Notes under the pieces: model-generated
What the model was told of the DNA's origin: nothing
The model's database searches: none
What the model saw: the letters and a program-made list of their open reading frames with translations, nothing else
Program-made: the position numbers and the translations under genes
IMG/VR virus record: IMGVR_UViG_3300045988_163332
Span: 1 to 37,329 of that record
DNA: 37,329 nt
Direction: 5' to 3' (one strand)
DNA from: a virus
Part shown: piece by piece, positions 3,036 through 37,329 of the stretch
How the letters are laid out: each line of letters starts with the position of its first letter
How positions within the stretch are numbered: the first letter of the stretch is position 1

Positions 3036-3914
3036 CTAATCTGTTATTATTAAAGTCCAACCATTAATTATTAAACTTCCACAAGTTAAACCAGAGTTAG
3101 TAACTATTGCTCCTAATACTGTTAGATTTTGTGTAATAGTTCCACCAGATGTTGGAAGTTTTGTATTATCAGCTATTGTAATATTGGCACTACCATTAAA
3201 ACTAACTCCGTTGATAGTTCTAGCAGTTTGCAATTTTGTAGCAGTAGCAGAGTTTCCTATACAAACATCAGCACTATCAGCAGTTGTAGCACTCTTTGCT
3301 TTATCTTCTTTACCTAATTTATTATCTAATAAATTATTAGTTTCAGTTTTAGTATATATATCTGGTTTATTTATTAGTTTTTCATAATCAGTAGTTCCAG
3401 GTTGACCGCTTTGTCCTGGTATCCCTTGTTGACCTCTAGGGGCAGTAAAATCATATGTGCTACCATTAGTTAAAGTCACAGTATAAACATTTCCACCATC
3501 TTCATTAGTATTCTTAAATGTTATACTTTTTACTCCTACTCCATCAGCTCCTTTAGGACCTTGAATACCTTGCTCTCCAGTATCTCCCTTAGGTCCTTGA
3601 GGACCAGTATTTCCAGTTATACCTTGTTCCCCTTTATCTCCCTTAGGTCCTTGAATACCTTGAGGACCTTGGGGACCTTGTGGTCCAGTATCTCCCTTAT
3701 CTCCTTTAGGACCTTGAATACCTTGCTCTCCAGTATCTCCTTTAGGACCTTGAGGACCTTGTATTCCTTGCTCTCCTTTTGCACCAGGTAAACCTTGAAT
3801 ACCTTGTTCCCCTTGTATTCCTTGTTCTCCTTTAGGACCTTGAGGTCCGATATCTCCTTGTTCTCCTTTAGGACCTTGAGGACCTACAACATTACCTATA
3901 ATTAATTTTGGCAT
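3036..3914 (-). CDS. Collagen-like repeat protein, a second tail fibre or fibre subunit.
   Basis: Residues 11..125 are continuous Gly-X-Y triplets (nt about 3540..3884), mostly GPQ, GPK, GEQ and GIQ. The C-terminal part is globular and rich in Thr, Asn and Gly. Confidence 0.6.
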
Positions 3915-3927
3915 AATTAAAACCTCC

Positions 3928-5307
3928 TTATTCTAAAATTTCTAATACCAAATTCCCATCTTCATCTATTGAAAAATTTGGTTGAGTATCATTCTCGTTA
4001 TAATATACAACTAAGTTTCCATCTTCTATTTGGAATATGTACTGACTATTTATAGGAGTGATTACAGCAGTTCCATTATCTCCTTTATCTCCCTTATCTC
4101 CTTTAGGACCTTGTATTCCTTGAGGACCTTGGGGTCCGATATCTCCCTGCTCTCCCTTAGGTCCTTGTTCTCCTTGTATTCCTTGAATGCCTTGTTCGCC
4201 TTTTAGTCCTTGAAGTCCTCTTTCTCCTTGAATACCTTGTTCCCCTTGTATTCCTTGAATACCTTGAGGACCTGTTATTCCTTGAGGACCTTGAGGTCCA
4301 ACTTCTCCTTGTATTCCTTGCTCTCCTTGAATACCTTGAGGTCCATTTTCCCCTCTTTCTCCTTGGTCTCCTTTATCTCCTTTGAATCCTCTTTCTCCTC
4401 TTTCCCCTTTCGGTCCTTCTGGTCCATCATTGCCTTGAATACCTTGAGGACCTCTTCGTGCTAATAATTCTCCTATAATTTCTCCGTCTTCACGGTAGAC
4501 TGTATAGACGTTTCCTTCTGGTAATTCTTTATTAAAACCAACACTTGCTATTGAGTACCCTCTTTCTCCTTTTAAATCTTGCATATGATAGTCTATATAA
4601 TCTTGGATTTCTTTTTCTGCTTCTTCTATTTTTTCTTGTGTATATTTATCTAATTTTAAATAACTATCTGTTTTAAGATAATTATCAATAATTTCTTTTA
4701 AATCTTTTTCTAATTGAATAACTAGCTCTTTTACTCTATTATCCAAATCTTCAAGTAATATTTTTTTTGTATCTTCATAAATCTTATTGAGCAACTCTTG
4801 ATATTTCTCAAATAGTGTAGTTACAGGATAAGTAGCTATCCCATCATCTGACATATACCAGATAGAACCTTTTGGTAAATCTGGTAAACCTAATTGTTTG
4901 GGTATTCCACTATCTACAAATAATTGAGATTTTATAATTTCTTTTTCTGTTCCAAGTATTGCAGCTTTTATTTTAGTAAACATATTATTTAGATTTTCTG
5001 GTGTAATATCTCCTGTACTACTAAAAGTAAAATCTAAATCAAAATAAGGTTCAGACTTAACTATCTTAATATCTGTGTAATCATTCCATATGTCATCTGG
5101 GTAGTTAGTAAAATCAATGTTTCCAGCATTGTATGTGTAATAATCTTTAGGTATAAGGAATATAAAAGCTGTGCTAGTTATAGGATTTTGTTTTTTCCCA
5201 TAGACTTCACAACTTGTCATTAAGTCTGAAAAGCTAGTAGCATACTGTTGTCTATTCTCTTCTAACTTAAAATACTCTTTTTTAAAATTTAACATTTGCT
5301 TAAACAC
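3928..5307 (-). CDS. Tail fibre protein with an internal collagen-like triple-helix region.
   Basis: 459 aa. The N-terminal part is globular. Residues 286..412 are Gly-X-Y repeats (nt about 4072..4452), followed by a short C-terminal beta-rich tail. Confidence 0.6.
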
Positions 5308-21040: not shown

Positions 21041-21375
21041 TATTTCTTTTCTCCTTTTTTAGCTTTATCAAATGGTAACTGTTCTTTTTTTATAGCTTCC
21101 TCTATCTCTTCTGGACTTAGTCCTGCTTCAAATTTTTCAAGGAATTTATCATAATCTACATTTTTATATTTTCCTTGAGATTTTTCACTATCAAAATATA
21201 CTTGTAATGCTTGTTTCTTAGATAGTTTTATAGATATTTCTAAATCTCCATCTTTGTATTTTAAGATAACATTAGCATTACTTACTTGATGTCCAGAAGG
21301 AACTAACTTAGTTGTAGGTTTATATTTTTTTCTAAATGATGTATCTACAACCTCCATAACTTTAATATCTACCAT
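21040..21375 (-). CDS. Small Lys-rich hypothetical protein (111 aa).
   Basis: ORF. Confidence 0.45.
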   Translation of the reverse strand: MVDIKVMEVVDTSFRKKYKPTTKLVPSGHQVSNANVILKYKDGDLEISIKLSKKQALQVYFDSEKSQGKYKNVDYDKFLEKFEAGLSPEEIEEAIKKEQLPFDKAKKGEKK

Positions 21376-21659
21376 TCTTCATCAACTCCTTTTAAAGCTC
21401 TTCTAGCTTTTTCTGTTTTATTTTTCTTTATCTTTTTTAATAAGTTTTCAATACTAATTTCTTTCCAGCCCTCTGCTCCTCTTTCTAGTATTTTTATAGG
21501 ATTTTTAGCTTTAGGTTTCATTCTAAAAAAATATCTAGCTGCCTCATACATAGTTATGAACGATTCCTTAAATTCCATTCTTTTATACTCTTCTCCATTT
21601 ATAACTACTATTTCTTTGATTGATTCTACTATGTAGTTATAGCTTTCTAAATTTATCAT
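21369..21659 (-). CDS. Small hypothetical protein (96 aa).
   Basis: ORF. Confidence 0.45.
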   Translation of the reverse strand: MINLESYNYIVESIKEIVVINGEEYKRMEFKESFITMYEAARYFFRMKPKAKNPIKILERGAEGWKEISIENLLKKIKKNKTEKARRALKGVDEEW

Positions 21660-21768
21660 TGTTACCCCCTTTTTGCTTATAATCTAATTAAAACATTCAA
21701 GTCTTTAAATGCTTTAACTAGAGCATAAGCTCTAGCTTTGTGTGTGTTGTAAGTTATTTTAAGAAAGG

Positions 21769-27230: not shown

Positions 27231-27719
27231 TTACACAACCCCCTCAACTTGTAAGAATTTCTTAGTCTTGTCATCTCTTTGCTCTTGCTTGTCCTCTGTC
27301 TTTTCTCCTAGCTCTAATGAAACCTCAATGTTATTAGTTCCACCTTGCTTGTCCCAGCCTGCCAGAGTTTCTATTCTTTGCGACAGTTGAACTGCTGCTT
27401 TAAAATCTACAAATTTACCTGTTTTTTCTAGTAGTCCTTTGTCTGTAAGTCTTATAATCTTTGTATCTTCCAGTCCTGCTGCCTGTTCAAATAGTCCTTG
27501 CATTATTGCTAAGTGTCCCATTTTATCTCTTCCAAGCATAAAGTCCACCATTTCCAAGTGTTCCTCTATTTGCTTGTTGATTTTCTTGCTACTCATTAGC
27601 TTGTGCATTAGCTTTAGGTCGAATGGGATTCCAGCAGCTTGCATGGCTTTAAGTCCATTTTTGCAAACTAGAAATGATGATATGAACTTCTCTTCTTGCT
27701 CTTTGGTTATTCCTGCCAT
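27231..27719 (-). CDS. terS: Terminase small subunit.
   Basis: 162 aa. N-terminal block NGLKAMQAAGIP resembles the terminase small subunit HTH signature ...A.kaAGys. It sits upstream of the head genes. Confidence 0.5.
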   Translation of the reverse strand: MAGITKEQEEKFISSFLVCKNGLKAMQAAGIPFDLKLMHKLMSSKKINKQIEEHLEMVDFMLGRDKMGHLAIMQGLFEQAAGLEDTKIIRLTDKGLLEKTGKFVDFKAAVQLSQRIETLAGWDKQGGTNNIEVSLELGEKTEDKQEQRDDKTKKFLQVEGVV

Positions 27720-28795
27720 TCTAACTCTGCCCCCTCTTCTCCTAGTCTTATTTTTATACTAACTTTAGCTATTTTTTTGAGTAGTTTTTCCAATCTTTCA
27801 AAGTTCTTGGAATAAGACTTTTTAATCTCTCCAAGTTTTTCTAACTCTTCCAGCTTTTCAATAACTTTCTTTTTCTGGTATTGAATAGCTCTTTTTTTAA
27901 TACTCATATTATTTTCAGTCATTACAACATCAAGTAATCTAATATCAAATATTAAATACTCTTTCATCATTAGTCTTTCTGCTAGCCCCTTAGTTCCTGG
28001 AACAACTATCTTTTTCAATTCTTTGATATCATAGTTTAACTCTTTGACTATCTGCTCTGTAAGTATTGCTCCTATTGTTTTTCTAAGTGCTGCAGCTAGA
28101 TTATCTTTAGTTATTCCACCTAGATGATTTAAATTATAGGTCTTGAGGTGTGGAGGTCTTAGCGTCAACTCTCCTCTTAATGCTTGTCTTTTCTTTGCTA
28201 CCTCTTTTCCTGTATCTTCCATCTCTTTTCTTTTGGAATAGATTTTAAAATAGCTAGTTGTTTCTCTGGACTTTTTCCCTCTCTCTTTGAAGTCTACTCC
28301 ATCAAGTTCCAATCTTTTTTTATTGTCTGTATCAAAATACATTCTTGAAGTTGGAAAGATATTTTTATATGCTCTATATATCAAATTTAAAACTTGATAA
28401 TAATTTCTGATGTTCTCAACTTCTAATTGGTTTGATAAGTCCAGACTAACTACTCTAATATCTTCTCCTTTTACAAGTTCTCCTGTTATGCTTCTAAGTA
28501 TTAAGATTAATTCTTGATGTACTTGAGCAATAACTTTTTGATTTGTTACTAGCTTGTAATTGTCATTGTTATCATATCTGGAATAACTGAAAGAGATTAA
28601 TATATTTTTTTTCTCATCAATGCTGATGTAGTTTAACCAGTTATATTTTTTTAATCTGGTATTTTTAAATATTATTTTTTTATTTTCATTTCGTGCCTCT
28701 TCTTCCAGTAGTATGCTAGTTGATTGAATTATGAAGTCTAGTTCATTCAACTTGGCTGGATAACTTATACTTGCAGTATCTACAATCCAACCCAC
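27707..28795 (-). CDS. Hypothetical protein (362 aa), first gene of the late block.
   Basis: ORF with a GTG start after a G-rich SD. C-terminal coiled-coil. Confidence 0.5.
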   Translation of the reverse strand: MGWIVDTASISYPAKLNELDFIIQSTSILLEEEARNENKKIIFKNTRLKKYNWLNYISIDEKKNILISFSYSRYDNNDNYKLVTNQKVIAQVHQELILILRSITGELVKGEDIRVVSLDLSNQLEVENIRNYYQVLNLIYRAYKNIFPTSRMYFDTDNKKRLELDGVDFKERGKKSRETTSYFKIYSKRKEMEDTGKEVAKKRQALRGELTLRPPHLKTYNLNHLGGITKDNLAAALRKTIGAILTEQIVKELNYDIKELKKIVVPGTKGLAERLMMKEYLIFDIRLLDVVMTENNMSIKKRAIQYQKKKVIEKLEELEKLGEIKKSYSKNFERLEKLLKKIAKVSIKIRLGEEGAELEWQE

Positions 28796-28993
28796 CCCCC
28801 TTTTAATTTTCTAAAAGATAGCTTTAATAATTTAAAACTATCTCTAAGAAAATCAGGTATATTTTATTTTTTTATAGTTAAACCCTTGCAGGATATACAA
28901 GGGAGCTTTATTATATATTTAGCTGAGTTTCAATTTTCTAAAACATAGAATTTATGCTAGTTTCAGAAGATTTTTTCTTACTTTTATACCCTC

Positions 28994-29020
28994 AAAAACG
29001 CAATTTTTTTTGCGTTTTTT
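28994..29020. terminator. Bidirectional hairpin terminator.
   Basis: Stem aacgcaa / ttgcgtt with loop tttttt, flanked by an A-run and a T-run. Confidence 0.55.
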
Positions 29021-29046
29021 GGGTAAAAAAATATTTATTAGTATGT

Positions 29047-29184
29047 TTTAAAATTCTATATCTCTTATTTTTCTTTCATAGAACATCATTAACATATGTT
29101 CTTTGACTTCGTTTCTCAAGTCCATTTTGTCTAGCTCTTCTTTAAAATACTTCAATGTCTCAACGAGTTCTTTTGTTTCTTCCA
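29047..29184 (-). CDS. Candidate small protein (45 aa) just downstream of the Cro-like gene.
   Basis: Translation gives MEETKELVETLKYFKEELDKMDLRNEVKEHMLMMFYERKIRDIEF. RBS aggagg 7 nt upstream. Followed by the terminator at 28994..29020. Below the ORF-track cutoff. Confidence 0.35.
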
Positions 29185-29221
29185 TTCCTGCACCTCCTTT
29201 CGTTTTCTTGGTGTTAAAATG

Positions 29222-29422
29222 TTATTTGCTATTTAATACCTTTTCTATTTTCACTAAAATTTCATTGCTTGGGACTTGGTTATTTCTTAATCTCAACATA
29301 ATATTTGCAAATGAAGCTTTAGGAATCCCAGCAAGTTCTGCAAATTCTGCCTGTGTTATTTTTTTTCTTTTTTTAAATTTTTCAATTTCATTTATAATCA
29401 AATCAGTTATTTTTTTAATCAC
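29222..29422 (-). CDS. XRE-family helix-turn-helix regulator (Cro-like, 66 aa).
   Basis: HTH block ITQAEFAELAGIPKASFANI. GTG start. Confidence 0.6.
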   Translation of the reverse strand: MIKKITDLIINEIEKFKKRKKITQAEFAELAGIPKASFANIMLRLRNNQVPSNEILVKIEKVLNSK

Positions 29423-29446
29423 AATATAACCCCCTTTTAGTTATAT

Positions 29447-29475
29447 TATATATCCTTTTTAGTTATTTTTGTCAA
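29447..29475 (-). promoter_or_regulatory. Promoter for the Cro-like gene: TTGACA, 17-nt spacer, TATATA (minus strand).
   Basis: -35 is the reverse complement of tgtcaa at 29470..29475. -10 is the reverse complement of tatata at 29447..29452. Confidence 0.5.
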
Positions 29476-29539
29476 GCATTAAAATTTTATATTGGTTATG
29501 TGAGTTATAAAAAAGCTATAATATAAAGGATTTTGAGCA

Positions 29540-29568
29540 ATAAAAAAGAGGAGAAAATTTTCTCCTCT
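29540..29568 (-). terminator. Hairpin terminator after the CI and secreted-protein operon.
   Basis: Stem agaggag / ctcctct with loop aaaatttt. A U-run follows on the minus-strand RNA. Confidence 0.55.
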
Positions 29569-29621
29569 TAGTATATTTTTTTATTTTTGGTTTTTGGCTA
29601 ATAATTCTTATAAAAATATTT

Positions 29622-30173
29622 TTAATTATAAATTTTTTCTAAAATTTCCCCTATTCTTTGTTGATTATATCCAACTAATTCAGCTGTTTTTTTTCTAAAT
29701 AACATTATTCCAGAAATACTATTTTCCCCTAAAATTTCTTTTTCTTTTTCTAAACCAAATTTAATATAAATTATTTCTTGAAACATATTTTTACTTTGTA
29801 ATCCTCTTATATTTTCCAATGTTGAAAATATATATTTTCTTTGTTGTTGAACCTCTTTTATATTTTTAAATTTCTCATCTGTAACCTCTTTTAAAAGCAG
29901 CATTCCTAAAGAAGTTTGATATATATCATAGGCTGAGTTTTCAAGTTCTGTTAAATATTGCGTTTTATCTTCTTTGGGATTTTTAGTTAAAATTTCTACA
30001 ACCTCTTTATAATTATTCATTATTTGTTTAAAATCTTTTTCATAGTCATTAGTTTGATATGCAACAATAAACATTTCAAAAGTTTTATCAGTTATACTTT
30101 TTATAATTATATCGTTTTCAGCATAGATATTAAAATTAAAAATCAAAAATAACATTAAAAATACTTTTTTCAT
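29622..30173 (-). CDS. Secreted protein with a signal peptide, co-transcribed with the CI repressor. Candidate superinfection-exclusion or lysogenic-conversion protein.
   Basis: N-terminus MKKVFLMLFLIFNFNIYA followed by ENDII is a signal peptide without a lipobox Cys. The ATG is 8 nt after the CI stop. Confidence 0.55.
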   Translation of the reverse strand: MKKVFLMLFLIFNFNIYAENDIIIKSITDKTFEMFIVAYQTNDYEKDFKQIMNNYKEVVEILTKNPKEDKTQYLTELENSAYDIYQTSLGMLLLKEVTDEKFKNIKEVQQQRKYIFSTLENIRGLQSKNMFQEIIYIKFGLEKEKEILGENSISGIMLFRKKTAELVGYNQQRIGEILEKIYN

Positions 30174-30181
30174 AAATCCCC

Positions 30182-30832
30182 CTAATAATATCTCATAACA
30201 CTTCTTAATCTTCCAATGACTCTAAGCTCTGATTGGTCCATTATTTTAATTTTAGGGTAATATGGATTTATACTTTTTAAAAAAATATCTCCCTCATCTT
30301 GTACGAATTTTTTTAAATATACTGCTCCTTGATAATTGACAACTATAATTTTATTTAAAATACAGTCTATGTTTTTAGTGTCAACTATAACTATATCTCC
30401 ATCTTTTATCTCTGGTTCCATAGAATCTCCAGCAACTCTTATAGCTATATTTCCTGTTTTTGCTAAATCTTCTGGCACTTCTATATATTCCAGAGTTCCA
30501 TAATCATTAAAACAACCATATCCAGCTGAAGCTTGAATATCTGGATAAAATGGGATCTTTTTTTGATTAACATTTTTTATTTGCTTTAATTGTAAAAACT
30601 CTTCTTTTAAACTCTCTGGTGCCTTTTCTAAATCTACTAATTTTAATAACTGAGCATAACTTTCTTTATCCATTATTTGTCCTAATTGCTCAATCGTTGT
30701 TGCTGGAATCTTTCTTTTTCCATTTTCAATATTTGTAATAAAAACTTGACTACATAGCAATTTATCGGCTAAATCGACTGCTCTTAAATTATTTTTCTTT
30801 CTAAATTCCTTAATAAATTCTCCTGCTGTCAT
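30182..30832 (-). CDS. CI-type repressor: N-terminal XRE HTH fused to a LexA/S24 autopeptidase domain.
   Basis: HTH block LRAVDLADKLLCSQVFITNIENGKR. S24 motifs GDSMEP and a K further downstream (VAGDSMEPEIKDGDIVIVD). Confidence 0.8.
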   Translation of the reverse strand: MTAGEFIKEFRKKNNLRAVDLADKLLCSQVFITNIENGKRKIPATTIEQLGQIMDKESYAQLLKLVDLEKAPESLKEEFLQLKQIKNVNQKKIPFYPDIQASAGYGCFNDYGTLEYIEVPEDLAKTGNIAIRVAGDSMEPEIKDGDIVIVDTKNIDCILNKIIVVNYQGAVYLKKFVQDEGDIFLKSINPYYPKIKIMDQSELRVIGRLRSVMRYY

Positions 30833-30862
30833 ACTTTTTCAACTCCTTTTATAACTAATTTG

Positions 30863-30891
30863 ATTATACAATAAAAAAAATAACTTGACAA
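30863..30891 (-). promoter_or_regulatory. Repressor promoter (minus strand): TTGTCA, 17-nt spacer, TATAAT.
   Basis: -10 is the reverse complement of attata at 30863..30868. -35 is the reverse complement of tgacaa at 30886..30891. Confidence 0.5.
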
Positions 30892-30913
30892 ATAACTTTC
30901 TTGGTTATATAAT
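30885..30913 (+). promoter_or_regulatory. Early rightward promoter: TTGACA, 17-nt spacer, TATAAT (perfect consensus). Its -35 box overlaps the divergent repressor promoter face to face.
   Basis: -35 ttgaca at 30885..30890, -10 tataat at 30908..30913. Repeated AAATAACT and TTATAT(A/G)AT motifs flank it. Confidence 0.6.
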
Positions 30914-30996
30914 CATATCAAATAGATAACTTAGTTAGTTATATGATAATCCTAAAAAAACATAAAAGCAAGTAGAAAATATAAGGAGTTGGTAAT

Positions 30997-31443
30997 ATGT
31001 ATAAATACTTTAACAGTAACGAGGATTTAAAAAAACAATATAGAGAATTATGTAAGAGATTACACCCAGACCACGGCGGAAATGAAGAGGACTTCAAAGA
31101 GATGATGGCAGAGTATGAAAGAATACAACTTGAGGGATTTAAACAACAAGCAAGGGAAGCAGGGGAAGAGATAGCCCCAGAGGTTATGGAGATACTAAAG
31201 AAAATAATACATTTCCATGGTTTAGAGATTGATGTTGTAGGTTCTTGGATATGGGTATCTGGTAATACTTTCTTATACAAGGAACAGTTAAAAGAACTTG
31301 GTTTTAGATGGAGTGCTAAAAGAAAAAAATGGTACTTTGGAGAGAAAAAAGGAAAAGGAACATTCAAGGGAGATTATGAAGAGTTAAAACAAAAATATGG
31401 TTGGCAAAGAGTACAAGGAAGCAACCTACAAGCGATAGCATAG
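30997..31443 (+). CDS. J-domain (DnaJ-like) protein. First gene of the early operon.
   Basis: N-terminal J-domain with the HPD motif (KQYRELCKRLHPDHGGNEEDFKEMMAEYERI). The C-terminal 90 aa are unassigned and Trp rich. Confidence 0.7.
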   Translation: MYKYFNSNEDLKKQYRELCKRLHPDHGGNEEDFKEMMAEYERIQLEGFKQQAREAGEEIAPEVMEILKKIIHFHGLEIDVVGSWIWVSGNTFLYKEQLKELGFRWSAKRKKWYFGEKKGKGTFKGDYEELKQKYGWQRVQGSNLQAIA

Positions 31444-31513
31444 TTAAGTTTTTATAGGTTCCCTAAGAGCCTTGGGGAACTTGTTAAAAACTTAAAAGGG
31501 GGCGGTCAATATG
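31443..31513 (+). repeat. Copy 1 of a triplicated early intergenic unit of about 70 bp, with a 23-bp palindrome (31458..31480) followed by an RBS and atgact.
   Basis: Sequence agtttttataggttccctaagagccttggggaacttgttaaaaacttaaaagggggcggtcaatatgact. Very similar to the copies at 32474 and 33191. Confidence 0.7.
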
Positions 31514-31711
31514 ACTGATGAACAAATTAGATTTTTTATAAAAGATTATATTTTACCAGAGATTAGAAAATACAAATCTGAAAGTATAGAAGTATTTTAC
31601 AAAGAAAAAAATGGTGTCTATACAGTTAGTATAGATGGCAAAGAATTTAAAGATTCTGATATTAAATCTTGCCTAGAAGAAGCAAGAGGATATTTTAAGG
31701 GGTGGTTCTAA
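31511..31711 (+). CDS. Small hypothetical early protein (66 aa).
   Basis: ATG directly downstream of repeat copy 1. Confidence 0.5.
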   Translation: MTDEQIRFFIKDYILPEIRKYKSESIEVFYKEKNGVYTVSIDGKEFKDSDIKSCLEEARGYFKGWF

Positions 31712-31890
31712 TGTCACAAGATGTAATGTTCTTAAAATATATCAATGAGAAATGGGGAGTTCTTACAGTAAGAAGATTTAAAAAATTTTATATAGTAAAC
31801 GCTGGAGAGTTCCACGGATATGGTTTAACAGTATCTGAAGCGATAGCAAATTTAGCACTTAATAATCAAGAGGAGGGAAAACTATGTTAG
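31711..31890 (+). CDS. Small hypothetical early protein. The ATG at 31711 overlaps the upstream stop; the ORF-track GTG at 31702 is less likely.
   Basis: taATG overlap with the stop of the upstream gene. Confidence 0.45.
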   Translation: MSQDVMFLKYINEKWGVLTVRRFKKFYIVNAGEFHGYGLTVSEAIANLALNNQEEGKLC

Positions 31891-32159
31891 ATAAAGAATT
31901 ATTAGAAGGATTTGAAACAATGCAACAATTACAAGATGATGGACTAATTGATTCTTATAATTATAACTCGAAAACAGGAGATTTTATGGTATTTTCTGGA
32001 CTTGGTAAAAAAGAAGTTAAGTTCCAGGTAGATATGGATAGTATGATGGAGTTTTTAGAAGAATGGGAAAAAGAAGTTGAAGAAGCTTTCCAAGATAAAA
32101 AAAGAGAAGAACAAGACAGAGAAGCAGCTTACTGGGCAGTCCAAGGGGTTAGATATTAA
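31884..32159 (+). CDS. Acidic hypothetical early protein (91 aa).
   Basis: ORF with RBS gaggaggg. Confidence 0.5.
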   Translation: MLDKELLEGFETMQQLQDDGLIDSYNYNSKTGDFMVFSGLGKKEVKFQVDMDSMMEFLEEWEKEVEEAFQDKKREEQDREAAYWAVQGVRY

Positions 32160-32226
32160 TGATAGCTTGGATAAAACATATATTAAAATTCAAAATTAAA
32201 TATAGCAAAATGTAGGGGGAATAAAA

Positions 32227-32475
32227 ATGTTAGCAGTAATGATGGAGAATTTAAAAGAAAAATACAGTATTAAAAATTTAGTTTGGGAGATAAAAAACAA
32301 TATAGTTTTCTTTAGTGGAGAACTTAAAAAAAATATAGTTGCTGGATATGTAGGAGAAAAACCAGTAAGTTATGAGAAAAAATTAGATTTTAATAGCTTT
32401 AGGGTAGCAGATGAAAAAGTAGAAAAAGAAATTGATGACTTTTTCCAAATGCTTGAAAATGTTTTTAATAAATAA
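32227..32475 (+). CDS. Small hypothetical early protein (82 aa).
   Basis: ORF with RBS taggggga. Confidence 0.5.
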   Translation: MLAVMMENLKEKYSIKNLVWEIKNNIVFFSGELKKNIVAGYVGEKPVSYEKKLDFNSFRVADEKVEKEIDDFFQMLENVFNK

Positions 32476-32548
32476 TTTAGTTTTTATAGGTTCCCCAAGA
32501 GCCTTGGGGGACTTATTAAAAATTAAATTGGAGGTGGTCTTTATGACT
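32474..32548 (+). repeat. Copy 2 of the triplicated intergenic unit (palindrome 32490..32512).
   Basis: Sequence tttagtttttataggttccccaagagccttgggggacttattaaaaattaaattggaggtggtctttatgact. Confidence 0.7.
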
Positions 32549-32680
32549 GATGTTAGATTAGAAAGACTTGATAACTACTTTGATGAGGAGTTAGAAGAAG
32601 TTAGAGAAGCTGCAGCAGATATGACAGAAAAAGAGCTTAGAGAATTTTTAGAACTTTTAAATATTGAGGAGTGGTTTTAA
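32543..32680 (+). CDS. Small acidic protein (45 aa) starting MTDVRLERL. The ORF-track start at 32432 is a spurious upstream extension through the repeat.
   Basis: The ATG at 32543 is preceded by ggaggtgg inside the repeat unit. Confidence 0.45.
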   Translation: MTDVRLERLDNYFDEELEEVREAAADMTEKELREFLELLNIEEWF

Positions 32681-33192
32681 TGGCAAATATAATAAATTTA
32701 TTAGAGGACAAATTAGCATTAAATGAACTTTGGGAAAATTCCATTGATGAGAACACAGGAGAAATAAAAGAGTGTGAAGCTTTAGAGGCTTTAACAAAAG
32801 AAATAGAGCAAGATTTGAGCAGTAAAACAGGTAGAATTATACAGGTATTTCAAAATAATAAAGCACAAATAGAAGTGCTGGACAAGGAAATAAAAAGGCT
32901 TGAAGCTAGAAAAAAATCTTTAGAGAATAAAGATAAAAATTTTAAAAACTTTTTAAAATATACTCTTGAAAGAATAGGAGTAAAAAAAATAGATACTATC
33001 TTTGGAATAATAGGAATAAAAAATAATCCTGCAAGTGTAGAGCTTATAGACAAAGACAAAATACCTGCAGAATTTAAGACAATAAAATATGTTGAAGATA
33101 TTTCAAAAACTGAAATTTCAAAAGCTTTAAAGGCTGGGGTAGAAGTTCCAGGAGCAGAACTTAAACAAAGTACAAGTTTATATATTAAATGA
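32680..33192 (+). CDS. Gp157-like protein (Sipho_Gp157 family), of the kind commonly paired with phage annealing proteins.
   Basis: 170 aa and coiled-coil rich. The ATG at 32680 overlaps the upstream stop. It sits just upstream of the Rad52-like gene, as in other Firmicute phages. Family call from memory. Confidence 0.4.
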   Translation: MANIINLLEDKLALNELWENSIDENTGEIKECEALEALTKEIEQDLSSKTGRIIQVFQNNKAQIEVLDKEIKRLEARKKSLENKDKNFKNFLKYTLERIGVKKIDTIFGIIGIKNNPASVELIDKDKIPAEFKTIKYVEDISKTEISKALKAGVEVPGAELKQSTSLYIK

Positions 33193-33265
33193 TTTAGTTT
33201 TTATAGGTTCCCCAAGAGTCTTGGGGTACTTATTAAAAATTAAATTGGAGGTGGTCTTTATGACT
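33191..33265 (+). repeat. Copy 3 of the triplicated intergenic unit (palindrome 33208..33229).
   Basis: Sequence atttagtttttataggttccccaagagtcttggggtacttattaaaaattaaattggaggtggtctttatgact. Confidence 0.7.
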
Positions 33266-33883
33266 AAAGAAAAATTTCAAGAAATGTATTTAAAAGATTT
33301 AACAGGTATGATAGAAACAATAGACACAGGAAAAAGAAAGCTATCATATATTAGCTGGGCTAATGCTTACAAAATGGCTATGGAGCAAGACCTATCAATG
33401 AGTTATGAAATATTAGAAGATTTAGAGGGGTTTCCTTTATTCTCAAGAGGGGATTGCCACTTTGTAAAAACTACTGTTACTATGTTTGGAGTAACTAAAA
33501 AAATGATGTTACCTATTATGGACAATAGACATAATTCTATAAGCAAACCTAACAGTAGAGATATAAACGACAGTATAATGAGATGTCTTGTAAAAAATAT
33601 AGCAATGTTTGGTATAGGACTATCATTATACACTGGAGAGGATTTAGAAAAGTATAAGGAATCTAAAGAAGATAAAGAGGTTAAGGAAGTTGAAGAGCAA
33701 ATTACACCAGAAGAGAGGTCTAAATTTATAGAAGTTATAAACAAAAAATACTCTAAAGAGGATATAGACAAGGCTATATACTTAGTTAAGGAAAATGGTA
33801 GATTTGAATTTAATATCTACACAGCAAGTAAAAAAGAATTAAACTATTTAAAAGCAACTTTAAGAAGTTTAAAAACTGCATAA
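33260..33883 (+). CDS. Rad52-like single-strand annealing protein (Sak family).
   Basis: The ATG at 33260 follows the repeat RBS. YISWANAY and DSIMRCLVKNIAMFGIGLSLY resemble the Rad52 N-terminal-domain motifs YIS and D.lkRaL.sFGnaLG. Acidic C-terminal tail. Confidence 0.5.
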   Translation: MTKEKFQEMYLKDLTGMIETIDTGKRKLSYISWANAYKMAMEQDLSMSYEILEDLEGFPLFSRGDCHFVKTTVTMFGVTKKMMLPIMDNRHNSISKPNSRDINDSIMRCLVKNIAMFGIGLSLYTGEDLEKYKESKEDKEVKEVEEQITPEERSKFIEVINKKYSKEDIDKAIYLVKENGRFEFNIYTASKKELNYLKATLRSLKTA

Positions 33884-33889
33884 AATAAA

Positions 33890-33919
33890 AATGGCAGGTT
33901 TATTCCTGCCACTTTTATT
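33890..33919 (+). terminator. Rho-independent terminator ending the early operon.
   Basis: Stem ggcagg / cctgcc with loop tttatt, followed by acttttatt. Confidence 0.6.
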
Positions 33920-34035
33920 AAAGAATCTCGAATAACATATGACGATTAAAAAAAGCATCTTATATGGGGTTAAAAATTTGGATACAGTAGTATAATATAC
34001 TTTTAGGTATAAGTCAATATCTTTTTAAACAAAAA

Positions 34036-34375
34036 GTATAGAGGTACAAAATCCAATTTTTATAGGTACAACATCAAAATTAATGTACCTTTAAAAACTA
34101 CAAAATCCAAATTATAACTACATGTCCTTTTATTATTGTAGTTAATTTATTTCCTATTTAGAAGAATATCTTTATATTCTTGTTTCTTTTAATATATTTC
34201 GACACCTCTCAAACCTTTAATTTTAGAGGGCTAGAGAAGACAAAAAACGACAAAATCCAGAGTATTTAACTACAAAATCCAAAGCAAAAAACGACAAAAT
34301 CCAGAGTATTTAACTACAAAATCCAAAATATAGAACTACAAAATCCAAAATTTAACGACATTATTTATTGACTAT
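34036..34375. repeat. Iteron-type replication origin. About 8 copies of ACAAAATCCA(A/G), including a 45-bp unit repeated twice in tandem. Inverted repeats and an AT-rich unwinding stretch lie alongside.
   Basis: Copies at about 34044, 34094, 34250, 34272, 34295, 34317, 34339 and 34352. The sequence caaaaaacgacaaaatccagagtatttaactacaaaatccaaag occurs twice in tandem. Inverted repeats aggtaca..tgtacct and actaca..tgtagt. AT-rich stretch at 34140..34200. Confidence 0.65.
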
Positions 34376-34386
34376 GTAGTTTTAAT

Positions 34387-35544
34387 ATGATAAACTTTTC
34401 TATAAAAGGAGGGGTAAGCTTGGGAAAGGAAAACTACAATTTGATACACCACAAAGATTTTCATAAACTGCAACTGCAGAATTACAATGTAAAAGAAAGA
34501 GCAATATTTTTAACTCTATGTTTGAAACTTATGGAACAGGAAGATGATGTTGTTAGTTTAAAAATATCAGAACTAACAAAAATATCCAATTATTCTCCAA
34601 GAAAAAAAGGGGATAATATAATACTTTTTCTTAAAGAATTAAATGACAAATTAAAAACTATGGAAATAATACAAACTAAAGAAAATGGAGATTTTAAAAG
34701 TATAACATTGTTTCCAACTTTTGAAGTCAACCAAGATTTTGGAGAGGTAAAAATAAGAGTAAATCCAGATTATAAATATCTTTTAAATCATTTGCAACCA
34801 CCATTTACAATACAAGATGTAGTTGAATACTCTGGACTTAAAAGTGGATATTCTCAACTGATGTATAGCATTTTAAAAAATTGGAATAAAGCTAAGAAGA
34901 TTAGTTTTAAATTAGATGACTTTAAAAAAGAGATGGGAATACCTGAAAATTATAGAATTTGTGATATAGATAGCAGGGTTATAGCTCCAATAACATCAGA
35001 GCTTTCAGTTTTATTTCATGGGCTAAAGGTTGAAAAAATAAAAAATGGAAGGTCGGTAGCTGGGTTTGAGTTTACCTGGAAAGATAACAAGGTTGATGAT
35101 GTAGTAGTTGATGAAGAGGAAATAGAGATTTCAGAAGAGTTGCTATCAGCTATTGAGAAAGCAGAGAAAAACAGATTTATAAAACCTTTCTTGACTGATG
35201 ATAATATAATAAAACTTTTAGATAAATTTAGCCAAGAGCAATTAGAAAAAGGATTGAAAGCTGCTTATGATTTAATTAAAACAGAATTTACAAGTCTTAA
35301 TTATTTGATAAAAGTTATTGAAGATAGTTTGAATAAACCTAAAAGAAAAATAGTTATAAGAAGAACTAAGGAAGCAGAAAAAATAAAAGAAGTTGAAGAG
35401 CCAGTAGTCAAGAAAAAAACAACTCCACTAACTAATGAAGAATATCAAAATGCTATGAAGATATATCAAGCTACTGGAGAAGATTTTGGTTATGAACCAG
35501 AGGAAGTAAGAGAGTATATAAAAAAATATAAGGATTTAATATAG
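34387..35544 (+). CDS. rep: Plasmid-type replication initiator (iteron-binding Rep). Start may be the ATG at 34387 or the TTG at 34430.
   Basis: 385 aa, immediately downstream of the iterons. Strong RBS aaggaggggtaagc before the TTG at 34430. Followed by parA. Confidence 0.55.
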   Translation: MINFSIKGGVSLGKENYNLIHHKDFHKLQLQNYNVKERAIFLTLCLKLMEQEDDVVSLKISELTKISNYSPRKKGDNIILFLKELNDKLKTMEIIQTKENGDFKSITLFPTFEVNQDFGEVKIRVNPDYKYLLNHLQPPFTIQDVVEYSGLKSGYSQLMYSILKNWNKAKKISFKLDDFKKEMGIPENYRICDIDSRVIAPITSELSVLFHGLKVEKIKNGRSVAGFEFTWKDNKVDDVVVDEEEIEISEELLSAIEKAEKNRFIKPFLTDDNIIKLLDKFSQEQLEKGLKAAYDLIKTEFTSLNYLIKVIEDSLNKPKRKIVIRRTKEAEKIKEVEEPVVKKKTTPLTNEEYQNAMKIYQATGEDFGYEPEEVREYIKKYKDLI

Positions 35545-35553
35545 GGGGGTAAA

Positions 35554-36312
35554 ATGAAAATAATATCATTTATAACAGAAAAAGGTGGCACTGGTAAGAC
35601 TACTGGTGCCAGAGAAGTTGCTGGGGTACTATCTCTAGTTCATAATAAAAAAGTTTTGCTTATTGATTGTGACTTTCAACAAAATCTAACTGAGAGTTTA
35701 ATAGAAGCAGACCAAGAAAAAAATATATTTAGAGCCATAAAAGAGAAAGATTTAAAAGGAAATATAATTCCTATTGAAAGAGATGGAAAACATATATTAG
35801 ATTTAATACCTGCAAGTCTTAATTTAAAGGACTTGGAATATAAAAAAGACAGTGTTGATATGGAAATGATTTACCTAGATTTAAAAAAAGGACTAGAGCA
35901 ACTCCAAGAATATGACTATATAATTATAGATTGTAGACCAGATATGAGAGCAATAGAAAGGGCTGTGTTAAAGTGCAGTAATTATGTTATCACTCCTGTT
36001 GAAGCTCATCTATTTAGTTTTAGAGGGTTTGAATTATTAGAGAACTTTATACAAGCTCTTAAAAAGGATTTAAACACTCCATTCATTCATTTTGGATATA
36101 TAAACAGGCTACAAAATGACAAAGAGATATTAGAAGCCACTGAAGATGTCAGAAGTTCTTTTGATAACATATTAGATACTCCTATAAGAGATAACCTTAA
36201 AATATTTAAAGCCTCACAGACAGGACATTTTATAATAGAATATAGTTCTACATCAAATGGGGCTAAGGATTTTAAAGCTCTTACAAAGGAGTTGTTGAAT
36301 AAATGGCAATAA
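35554..36312 (+). CDS. parA: ParA/Soj-type partition ATPase.
   Basis: Deviant Walker A KGGTGKTT near the N-terminus (MKIISFITEKGGTGKTTGA). 252 aa. Confidence 0.85.
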   Translation: MKIISFITEKGGTGKTTGAREVAGVLSLVHNKKVLLIDCDFQQNLTESLIEADQEKNIFRAIKEKDLKGNIIPIERDGKHILDLIPASLNLKDLEYKKDSVDMEMIYLDLKKGLEQLQEYDYIIIDCRPDMRAIERAVLKCSNYVITPVEAHLFSFRGFELLENFIQALKKDLNTPFIHFGYINRLQNDKEILEATEDVRSSFDNILDTPIRDNLKIFKASQTGHFIIEYSSTSNGAKDFKALTKELLNKWQ

Positions 36313-36968
36313 AAATAAATAGAAAACCTATAATTTTAAAAAAGAAAGAAAATACAGAAGTAATTATTCCAGAAAAAAATGACATAGAAGATATATTGAA
36401 ATACGATTATAACAAATTGGAAAATTTTTCAGATGATGATAAAAATCAATTAATTATATTTGAGAAAAGTATTATCACTAAAAAAGAAAATATCTCTTCT
36501 TTAGCACTACAAATAGGGCAAAATTTGGAAGAGGCAAGAAAACTATTTGATAGATACTCTGAAAATCCAAGTTCATATATGGAGTGGTACCAAGCTTTAG
36601 GATTTAATAAAGACCAAGTATCACTACTTAGAGGGAGATATAAGTTATCTTTAAGCTATCCACAATACAACAATTTAATTTCAGACTTTTCAGACAGAGA
36701 AGTAAAAGCTTTAGTGAATAAAAAGGTTAATGTAAGAATCCTTGAGAATATTTTATCTTCTGGAATAAGAACAGATAAAGAAATAAGAAAAGCTATTTCG
36801 AGCATGCTCGAAATAGAAGATGCCGAGATAGTAGAGGAATCTGAAAAAGATAAGCTGGTATCCAGACTATCGGAGGTAGAGGCGAAAATCAGAAAATTAG
36901 AGGAAGAGTTGAAAGAGTTGAAAACTGTTAAGGCTGAACTAAAAGAAAAGATAAAGGGGTTGAGCTAA
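36303..36968 (+). CDS. ParB-like or centromere-binding partner (221 aa) with a C-terminal coiled-coil.
   Basis: Overlaps the parA stop. Assigned by position only. Confidence 0.4.
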   Translation: MAIKINRKPIILKKKENTEVIIPEKNDIEDILKYDYNKLENFSDDDKNQLIIFEKSIITKKENISSLALQIGQNLEEARKLFDRYSENPSSYMEWYQALGFNKDQVSLLRGRYKLSLSYPQYNNLISDFSDREVKALVNKKVNVRILENILSSGIRTDKEIRKAISSMLEIEDAEIVEESEKDKLVSRLSEVEAKIRKLEEELKELKTVKAELKEKIKGLS

Positions 36969-37225
36969 TGAAATTAAAGGATTTATTAAAAGGAAATAGA
37001 GAAAATATTCAAAGTATAACTATAACAAATGGGTTGATAACATATTTTAAAAATGATGTAGAAGTTTTAGATATTATAGACATACAAGATGGATATAAAA
37101 TTATTGTTGGGGATATTACTTTAAAATTAGATGAGTTCCAAGCGAGTATAGAAAGTTATTATAGTACAGATAAAATATTTTATTTTGACTTAATTGATTT
37201 TAAGGTTGATTTAAAATTAAAATAG
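36968..37225 (+). CDS. Small hypothetical protein (85 aa), last gene before the terminal repeat.
   Basis: ATGA overlap with the upstream gene. Terminator immediately downstream. Confidence 0.4.
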   Translation: MKLKDLLKGNRENIQSITITNGLITYFKNDVEVLDIIDIQDGYKIIVGDITLKLDEFQASIESYYSTDKIFYFDLIDFKVDLKLK

Positions 37226-37250
37226 AGGAATTTTTCCTCTATTTTTTTTT
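37224..37250 (+). terminator. Rho-independent terminator abutting the start of the right terminal repeat.
   Basis: Stem agagg / cctct with loop aattttt, followed by T9. Confidence 0.6.
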
Positions 37251-37329
37251 AAAAAATCTCTTGACGTCCCAGTGGGATAGGGTTAATATTTTCTTAACTT
37301 GCAAGTGAAAAAATACTTGACGGTCTCAG
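37241..37329. repeat. Right copy of the 89-bp direct repeat. Contains a complete copy of the first left-end promoter.
   Basis: Identical to 1..89. It begins right after the hairpin terminator at 37224..37250. Confidence 0.9.

Follow-up and report, generated by a model that had tools for sequence, protein, structure and literature searches.

Our results revealed a conserved, structured intercistronic element in a viral genome deposited as IMG/VR record IMGVR_UViG_3300045988_163332, whose entire 37,329 nucleotides (the window) were analysed. Three near-identical spacers of ~70 bases, here named U1 (31443-31513), U2 (32474-32548) and U3 (33191-33265), lie between early genes, and each exactly occupies the gap between the stop codon of one gene and the Shine-Dalgarno (SD) sequence of the next. 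We lean towards reading this unit as an intercistronic mRNA processing or stability hairpin joined to a translation start region and acting in cis within a polycistronic mRNA, and, by analogy with other phages, the hairpin is probably a substrate of RNase III. The unit is a well-supported conserved structure, to which a molecular function may be assigned by analogy. The three units had been located at these coordinates in a first-pass annotation of the same DNA, whose first candidate role, at the RNA level, is also the one that the evidence assembled here supports best.

The core of the unit, GGTTCCCYAAGAGYCTTGGGG, occurs three times on the plus strand, against zero occurrences expected (100 shuffles), and a repeat search placed the copies 1032 and 717 nt apart. 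U2 and U3 are about 95-97% identical across ~80 nt that take in the SD, spacer and ATGACT start, and U1 is more divergent, with TTAAG rather than TTTAG in the 5' arm, CCCT rather than CCCC in the core and ACTTGTTAAAAACTTAAAAGGGGGCGGTCAATATGACT as its 3' part. As plus-strand RNA, each unit folds into a single hairpin of 52-58 nt (~25 bp), with 24-27 pairs, a 3-nt loop and one bulged U. Specifically, the U1 hairpin (31444-31495) has 24 pairs, the U2 hairpin (32473-32530) has 27, and the U3 hairpin (33191-33246) has 25 and one U.U mismatch; the corresponding 77-nt stretches fold at -27 to -32 kcal/mol, with z-scores of -4.6 to -5.8 relative to shuffled sequences. The palindrome with 10-bp arms described in the first-pass annotation is, therefore, just the apex of a hairpin whose full arms span ~26 bp, and those 10-bp arms are imperfect as DNA in all three units, with T opposite G in U1 and U2 and T opposite T in U3.

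The placement of the hairpins relative to the flanking genes is equally constrained. On the 5' side, the upstream TAG stop of U1 (31441-31443) abuts the helix, the TAA of U2 (32473-32475) lies within the basal helix, and the TGA of U3 (33190-33192) overlaps the helix base. On the 3' side, the SD starts 0-2 nt past the 3' arm, is left free by the fold and is separated from the ATG by 8 nt. The resulting translation start regions span 31498-31513 in U1 (SD GGGGG at 31498-31502, ATG at 31511-31513), 32530-32545 in U2 (GGAGG at 32530-32534, ATG at 32543-32545) and 33247-33262 in U3 (GGAGG at 33247-33251, ATG at 33260-33262). An identical translation initiation region had been proposed for all three, which holds for U2 and U3 and fails for U1, where the SD region differs. 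The shared ATGACT start is likewise not a family-wide feature, as relatives have ATGTCA, ATGCCA, ATGAAA, ATGTTA or ATGATA at this position. The genes downstream of the units differ from one another, and their products begin MTD, MTD and MTK (ATG at 31511, 32543 and 33260), in agreement with the M-T-(D/K) starts noted previously.

The hairpins fold best on the strand that is presumably transcribed across them, at -26.7 kcal/mol in the sense against -17.6 in the antisense for U1, -28.4 against -16.4 for U2 and -24.5 against -15.4 for U3. Further, scanning the window from end to end in both orientations for hairpin and SD cassettes identified two more, both on the minus strand and both of sequence unrelated to the units. 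The fourth, an AU-rich hairpin at 28804-28855 (-22.1 kcal/mol sense, -12.5 antisense; 27 bits in the match to model R1), is followed by AAAAGGGGGG and the start of a 362-aa gene (27707-28795), and the fifth, a hairpin of 25 pairs at 21675-21730 (-26.5 sense, -13.2 antisense), is followed by AAAAGGGGGTAACAATG and the start of the gene at 21369-21659; in both, AAAAGGGGG and the start codon come directly after the hairpin. The latter is an exception to the stop-abutting layout, lying about 37 nt past the upstream stop. All five window hairpins, including both on the minus strand, are 9-13 kcal/mol stabler on the strand of the flanking genes. We therefore rejected a single-stranded-DNA or replication hairpin, which predicts one favoured strand per side of an origin, given that the observed preference tracks gene direction. 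Across 28 units from the two clades described below, G.U oppositions outnumber A.C oppositions by 62 to 23, where sense-strand composition predicts a ratio of about 1.4-1.6, an argument for RNA in the sense orientation that is supportive rather than decisive. Overall, the evidence favours an mRNA structure over a DNA operator.

Exact-pattern scans for the element, which covered IMG/VR viral contigs, metagenome contigs and 185,579 species-representative genomes, found it in six IMG/VR and two metagenome contigs, all of them ~37 kb long or fragments of such genomes. These eight close relatives (the window clade, cited here by L-numbers) carry one to four copies per locus, L005 being the single-copy locus, and all copies are in the sense orientation of the early operon. 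Most matches in the genome and metagenome scans were chance occurrences in coding regions, as judged by a palindromicity filter, and the only true additional relatives were L036/L043 and L061; with the pattern used, the element was not found in the species-representative genomes, where matches were chance ones lacking the palindrome of the unit. A distant blastn search of GenBank phages with the 3.6-kb region gave no match, PLSDB plasmids gave only a 64-nt match in the Sak gene, to Enterococcus plasmids, and a portal-based locus search returned the same six viral contigs and no others. The element is also absent from the Cetobacterium and ZRK30 plasmids that carry the nearest Rep3 genes, which are ordinary plasmids, and an F. 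necrophorum prophage with a Sak homologue lacks units, its genes being tightly packed.

Most units that lie between genes in the relatives repeat the layout seen in the window, with the stop codon abutting or inside the 5' arm and the SD 0-3 nt beyond the 3' arm. An alignment of the window clade (A2; 16 distinct variants, 27-pair structure) had 94.4% of its cells paired, with shuffle and slide controls all lower, and showed double compensatory changes at four pairs; for example, pair 7-57 is U-A in eight variants and A-U in six, and pair 22-41 changes from C-G to U-A. Two divergent variants have 6-nt loops, and L009:12913-12981 has U-A in place of the closing G-C. The non-Watson-Crick oppositions in this clade comprise 32 G.U and a single A.C, against a ratio of about 1.5 predicted from base composition. 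Pair 18-45 is G.U in 16 of 16 variants, 16-47 is U.G in 9 of 16 and 21-42 is U.G in 10 of 16, with none of them A.C.

A more exacting comparison came from further ~37-kb contigs that encode Sak homologues ~55% identical to that of the window in the same Sak-Rep3-ParA layout (the sister clade). Similarly built hairpins occupy gaps of 61-64 nt at matching positions in their early operons, with three to five units in each genome and cores that differ. In these units, the stop codon lies 4-6 nt inside an AU-rich outer stem (UUAAUUUUU... / ...AAAAAUUAA), above which come a short middle stem, a 2x2 internal loop and a GC-rich apical stem of 8-10 bp, and the SD follows 0-3 nt after the 3' arm. The AU-rich outer stem is conserved across the clades and the GC-rich apical stem is variable. 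Specifically, the sister apical arms are unrelated to the window core and differ even within one genome (GCCCTCGAAC/GTTCGAGAGC, GGGCTGGA/TTCCAGCC and AGCTCTTGA/TCGAGAGCT). The clades were analysed separately because a one-column register shift between them limited a joint RNAalifold analysis to the apical stem. In the sister-clade alignment (A5; 15 units), 83.7% of cells were paired and 11 pairs showed compensatory double changes (47 cells), with a covariation score of 0.333 against 0.159 in shuffles (reached in 0 of 500) and at most 0.16 with slid partners. Pairing and position are conserved, and core sequence is not. That pairing was kept despite such sequence turnover rules out a recent duplication and is a strong argument against a sequence-specific DNA operator. 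The first-pass annotation had suggested that its proposal would fall if the units were a recent duplication with no conservation in relatives; the element proved to be conserved, and its structure outlasts full turnover of the core.

The sister clade also carries, immediately behind the last operon gene, similarly built hairpins that have no SD after them (L078 6605-6660, L080 6608-6663, L081 7052-7107 and L076 6648-6703), and in L078 and L080 such a hairpin directly follows the Sak stop codon, a position at which the window has a canonical terminator (33892-33911). Thus, the hairpin can exist without a downstream start site. Separately, a 256-nt non-coding stretch lies between early genes of L078 (3544-3801), bounded by long hairpins at 3540-3595 and 3730-3785; it has no counterpart in the window and is a candidate small RNA or structured leader.

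These comparisons bear directly on the possibility that the units act as DNA palindromes, be it as an operator for a dimeric or tetrameric regulator, a cruciform or a structure-specific recombination site. Such a role would suit the three window cores, which are nearly identical palindromes, the conservation of the outer AT-rich arms across clades and the mapping of recombination junctions to the units (see below). We nevertheless hold it to be very unlikely, because the cores differ within one sister-clade genome with pairing retained, because the favoured strand follows gene direction on both strands, and because the arms, read as DNA, contain flaws that RNA tolerates (T:G oppositions, one bulge), those in window-clade units being of G.U type on the sense strand. 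In addition, L001 carries the same hairpins with a different immunity region, and no copy of the core occurs in the control region of the cI-like repressor and PR-like promoter. The narrower case of an operator for a dimeric regulator, a candidate in the first-pass annotation, is disfavoured on the same grounds: the window copies are alike, yet sister genomes carry three to five units with different cores that keep their pairing, nearly all departures from Watson-Crick pairing in the window clade are G.U on the sense strand, and even the minus-strand hairpins are stabler in the sense.

Several other identities were considered and gained no support. For a MITE or host REP-like repeat, no target-site duplications are visible, and the pattern scan of the species-representative genomes gave chance matches only. 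Mimicry of a CRISPR repeat found no support in the two Fusobacteriota arrays compared (L070, type I-B; L069, type VI-C), whose repeats are unlike the hairpin, and the differing cores within one sister-clade genome also argue against it. An Rfam scan of 28500-37329 (E<=1) returned nothing at the units. A weak, sub-threshold match to Rfam mir-1502 falls on the hairpin at 28804-28855, and we consider this family assignment false.

With respect to transcription, none of the three units contains a promoter-like site (at least 9 of 12 matches), and the same scan finds a 12/12 site at 30885-30913. An intrinsic terminator was rejected as well, in line with the first-pass view that the hairpin is no classical terminator: the units lack a U-tract, the tails are A-rich in the sister clade, and U3 alone of the three passes a lenient scan (5 T in 8). 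The sequence 3' of the GC-rich stem is the A-rich partner of the U-rich 5' arm, so the layout is reversed with respect to a terminator on either strand, and ordinary terminators with U-tracts occur elsewhere in this genome. A related proposal, that the units are weak or factor-dependent attenuators between modules, with antiterminator read-through or graded polarity, seems to us the least probable of those weighed here. The GC-rich apical stem fits it, as does the ACUUAUU (4 U in 7) that follows the stem in the window clade, the terminator-like flag on U3 and the lowered downstream reporter expression caused by similarly placed PeSL stem-loops (PMC2839356). Against it, even the lenient scan accepts just one unit in three. 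The nucleotides behind the stem base-pair with the U-rich 5' arm, so that the U-tract lies upstream and the A-tract downstream, opposite to a terminator whichever strand is read. The sister-clade apical stems run into A-rich UCACUAUAAAAA, GAUAUAAAAA or UUCCACAAAAAA, and the same genome uses canonical U-tract terminators.

We return, then, to a processing or stability hairpin in the mRNA. Two helical turns of double-stranded RNA are a standard RNase III substrate, and the units have the ~20 bp or more of mostly continuous helix in the sense transcript that characterizes phage RNase III sites, with 24-27 pairs. A helix of at least two turns would be long enough for a cut by the host RNase III, might block 3'-to-5' and 5'-to-3' exonucleases, or both, and the operon transcript could thereby be split into segments of separate stability. 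Each downstream cistron would gain a defined, context-independent start region made of the hairpin, an A-rich spacer and a strong SD, and the upstream limit of that region would be set by the hairpin. With the stop codon part of the basal helix, ribosomes that terminate there have to melt the AU-rich lower stem, so that folding or cleavage could be tied to whether the upstream gene is being translated. A putative RNase III has been reported in F. nucleatum (PMC11039985).

The closest functional models would be the RNase III sites of phages T7 and SP82 and the intercistronic hairpins that stabilise mRNA. Both coliphage T7 and Bacillus phage SP82 have RNase III sites between early genes, according to the mention in PMC4838370 of Panganiban and Whiteley (1983). 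Like the units, they are long, mostly paired hairpins of ~50-60 nt in the sense transcript between early cistrons, placed shortly before the next ribosome-binding site, with several copies per operon and a common architecture. The SP82 sites reportedly also share sequence with one another. The units show no sequence similarity to the T7 and SP82 sites and belong to no Rfam family, RNase III cleavage is putative in their case, and they have the stop codon built into the helix. Further, typical T7 sites have an internal loop, whereas window-clade helices are nearly perfect with one bulge; the sister-clade units do have 2x2 internal loops. Among stabilising hairpins, intercistronic REP/BIME palindromes and puf-type hairpins protect upstream mRNA segments (reviewed in PMC7509114), and the units, as intercistronic hairpins, could similarly block exonucleases and give operon segments different stability. 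However, REPs are repeat families of host chromosomes that are not fused to the next gene's SD, whereas the units are so fused and, by the pattern used, were not found in the 185,579 species-representative genomes.

A number of observations weigh against the processing or stability reading, or narrow it. Cleavage, stabilisation and any effect on translation are carried over from other systems and so would hold here by analogy. A double-strand cut in a near-perfect helix would strip the protective hairpin from both products, so that processing or decay fits better than stabilisation, and a 3' stabiliser would not usually hold the stop codon in its base, where each ribosome that terminates melts the hairpin. 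The covariation counts of the window clade are not independent events, because copies have been homogenised by recombination. In the sister clade, the G.U to A.C ratio is 30:22, which is not above the expectation from composition, and about four units of two sequence types (L077 and L078; L078 and L081) fold equally well or better in the antisense. Finally, the host in which such processing would take place is assigned from protein similarity only.

The intimate placement of stop, helix and SD also raises a translational-coupling operator, in which the closed hairpin would lock the A-rich standby region by the SD into a rigid helix and limit de novo 30S binding, so that the downstream gene would be translated mainly when the upstream one is; a ribosome ending at the stop in the 5' arm would open the lower stem, and the helix would draw stop and SD together. 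In U1-U3 and most sister units, the stop does lie at the base of the 5' arm or 4-6 nt within it, the SD begins 0-3 nt past the 3' arm, and a conserved, AU-rich outer stem underlies a GC-rich, variable apical one. However, the fold leaves the SD itself free, 37 nt separate the upstream stop from the hairpin at 21675-21730, and L076, L078, L080 and L081 have post-Sak hairpins that lack an SD, which makes the hairpin separable from the start site. We regard this operator as unlikely, and it is compatible with processing or stability rather than exclusive of it.

Beyond their structure, the units mark the places at which these genomes exchange early genes. Homology breakpoints between the window and its relatives, as located by blast, fall exactly at units (31444 and 32541). 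Neither this coincidence nor the stop codon at or in the hairpin base features in the first-pass annotation. Specifically, L001 is unrelated to the window across 29204-31443 and 98.8% identical from 31444 onward, and in L002 and L003 homology stops at 32541 (the L002 stretch being 31444-32541) and resumes at 33883, the Sak stop. After U2, a small open reading frame (ORF), a YqaJ exonuclease and a 319-aa protein replace the 45-aa ORF, Gp157, U3 and Sak in L002 (9695-11794, minus strand), L003, L005 and L036, which is a swap of the whole recombination module; the 319-aa protein, which has no Pfam match, is possibly an annealase. The slot after U1 holds a 66-aa gene in the window, L001 and L002, nothing in L003, L043 and L061, a 78-aa gene with an extra unit in L004, and a 72-aa gene in L009. 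Along the alignment of the window with L004, segment identity jumps at the units, reading 67%, then 98% in U2, 88%, 85%, 94.5% in U3 and 99% in Sak. The sole unit of L005 joins a 5' arm of U1 type to a 3' arm of the type found in U2 of L002, with the intervening 1-kb module gone; this chimera is the footprint of unit-to-unit recombination. Units of the same genome share derived variants (AAAAGCC twice in L004, GGAAC twice in L009), which indicates gene conversion. Another mosaic boundary lies at 31711, a gene junction without a unit; hence, the units are preferred recombination sites and not the sole ones. Being near-identical within a genome and common to relatives, they serve as ~50-80 bp homology patches for the exchange, deletion and insertion of early-gene modules, and the phage that carries them itself encodes the annealase Sak.

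One could thus see in the units a purely evolutionary linker with no role in expression, that is, homology patches that recombination has spread and homogenised, much like promoterless PeSLs, and that persist through the modular exchange they give the lineage. The breakpoints at units, the L005 chimera, the alternative cassettes and the sharing of variants within genomes would all follow, and the phage encodes Sak, its relatives YqaJ and the 319-aa partner without a Pfam match. However, homology patches require conserved sequence and not conserved pairing, and sister units with mutually different cores all pair and show compensatory changes. Further, two single-copy hairpins of unrelated sequence share the hairpin-SD layout, and fixed orientation and sense-strand stability are left unexplained. 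We consider a linker of this kind quite unlikely, and the processing or stability hairpin remains the reading that we prefer for units that also recombine.

Two families of phage repeats resemble the units in these respects. PeSL cassettes of T4-type phages are defined by a strong sigma-70 promoter and have a stem-loop that acts as a terminator (PMC2839356, PMC4122927). Like the units, they are repeated intergenic motifs of ~70-100 bp with a stem-loop, closed at the 3' end by the SD and start; they border small, variable ORFs, and recombination between copies yields deletions, insertions, replacements and chimeric motifs. In contrast, the units have no promoter-like site and no terminator tail, and they occur in a 37-kb, temperate, phage-plasmid-like element rather than in a large lytic myovirus. 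The ESAS and SAS of Cluster K mycobacteriophages have a suspected role in translation; the 13-bp SAS, GGGATAGGAGCCC, lies 3-8 bp before the start codon and is preceded in the ESAS by sequence-conserved 17-bp inverted repeats (PMC3203893). Similar to the units, the ESAS is a one-orientation repeat placed right before the start codons of some non-structural genes, in which an imperfect inverted repeat and a short variable spacer precede a conserved SD-containing sequence. The sequences are unrelated, so that the layout alone is analogous. Moreover, the 17-bp half-sites are conserved in sequence, compatible with protein binding, whereas the unit core is free to vary if pairing is kept; the arms of the units are also longer (about 25 bp), and mosaic junctions are not a reported feature of ESAS.

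The operon in which the units lie spans 30997 to 33883 on the plus strand. A PR-like sigma-70 promoter (30885-30913; TTGACA-17-TATAAT, a 12/12 consensus match) faces away from the gene for a cI-like repressor on the minus strand (30182-30832; Pfam HTH_3 and Peptidase_S24) and, by its position, presumably drives this rightward operon; a canonical intrinsic terminator (33892-33911), with a GC stem followed by CTTTTATT, closes it. All genes with units between them lie 3' of the promoter and 5' of the terminator, from which we infer a single polycistronic transcript across the units. The first gene (30997-31443) encodes 148 aa with a weakly DnaJ-like N-terminus, and its TAG stop (31441-31443) abuts the U1 hairpin. 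The units then delimit three modules, which bears out the division into sub-modules proposed in the first-pass annotation. Module 1 (31511-32475) comprises four small ORFs of 66, 59, 91 and 82 aa, none with a Pfam or PHROG match, the first three joined by overlapping or adjacent stop and start codons; the first call (31511-31711) is backed by independent callers on identical contigs. Module 2 (32543-33192) comprises gene calls for a 45-aa ORF (32543-32680) and Gp157 (32680-33192; Pfam PF05565, 9e-35), and module 3 is the single-strand annealing protein Sak (33260-33883; PF06378, 1.5e-32). One unit had been placed ahead of the Gp157 and Sak pair; more precisely, U2 precedes the 45-aa ORF and then Gp157, and U3 lies between Gp157 and Sak. 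Module 1 also contains a 67-nt intergenic stretch without a long hairpin (32160-32226), which is 97% (L002) and 88% (L004) identical to its counterparts, against 68-80% for the flanking genes, and is overlapped by an out-of-frame 40-aa ORF (32077-32199) that is kept in relatives.

The window is a complete, circularly permuted genome of ~37.24 kb with 30% G+C. The simplest account of an exact 89-bp direct repeat at its termini (1-89 and 37241-37329) is that the assembly overlaps itself on a genome of 37,240 bp that is circular or circularly permuted. Minus-strand genes encode a T7-type portal (PF12236), a holin and collagen-repeat fibres; the adjacent genes at 3036-3914 and 3928-5307, with long collagen-like Gly-X-Y repeats (9-bp periodic in the DNA; PF01391), are presumably tail fibres. 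Symmetric, GC-poor hairpins flanked by A-runs and T-runs, at 29546-29569, 37219-37245 and 28975-29035, look like bidirectional terminators bordering transcription units. Iterons of 22 bp (five copies at 34241-34350, related copies at 34037-34113) stand upstream of a Rep3 initiator gene, followed by ParA and by a 221-aa gene in the ParB position (34387-36968). These features, and the absence of an integrase among the ORFs scanned, suggest an extrachromosomal phage-plasmid lifestyle. Plasmids of Cetobacterium and Fusobacterium carry the nearest Rep3 relatives, and the named Sak homologues are those of F. necrophorum and F. polymorphum, which makes a Fusobacterium the probable host. The lineage is common in metagenomes, where a single Sak cluster represents >200 contigs, many of them ~37 kb.

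A more ambitious reading combines these strands. In it, the unit would be a dedicated "cassette linker" of a common, uncultured, human-associated lineage of Fusobacterium phage-plasmids, at once an insulator of the translation start of each early gene block, a device that, by the stop codon in its helix, couples the fate of the block to upstream translation, with RNase III cutting the untranslated, closed form, and, as DNA, a patch of homology on which the annealase of the phage (Sak, or in relatives the YqaJ-led module) inserts, deletes and swaps cassettes. We offer it as a speculative possibility, improbable in its entirety, under which the unit would be a promoter-less, RNA-structure-based counterpart of PeSLs or integron cassettes in temperate phages. 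If our preferred reading holds, the Fusobacteria, whose RNA biology is little explored, would have a defined, compact RNA element of ~55 nt that segments and insulates the genes of an operon, and one that could be useful as a portable intercistronic insulator. A regulatory RNA structure would double as a physical site of modular exchange in a phage lineage prevalent in gut and oral environments, and the old idea of "linker sequences" in modular phage evolution would become testable in a temperate phage-plasmid with an annealase of its own.

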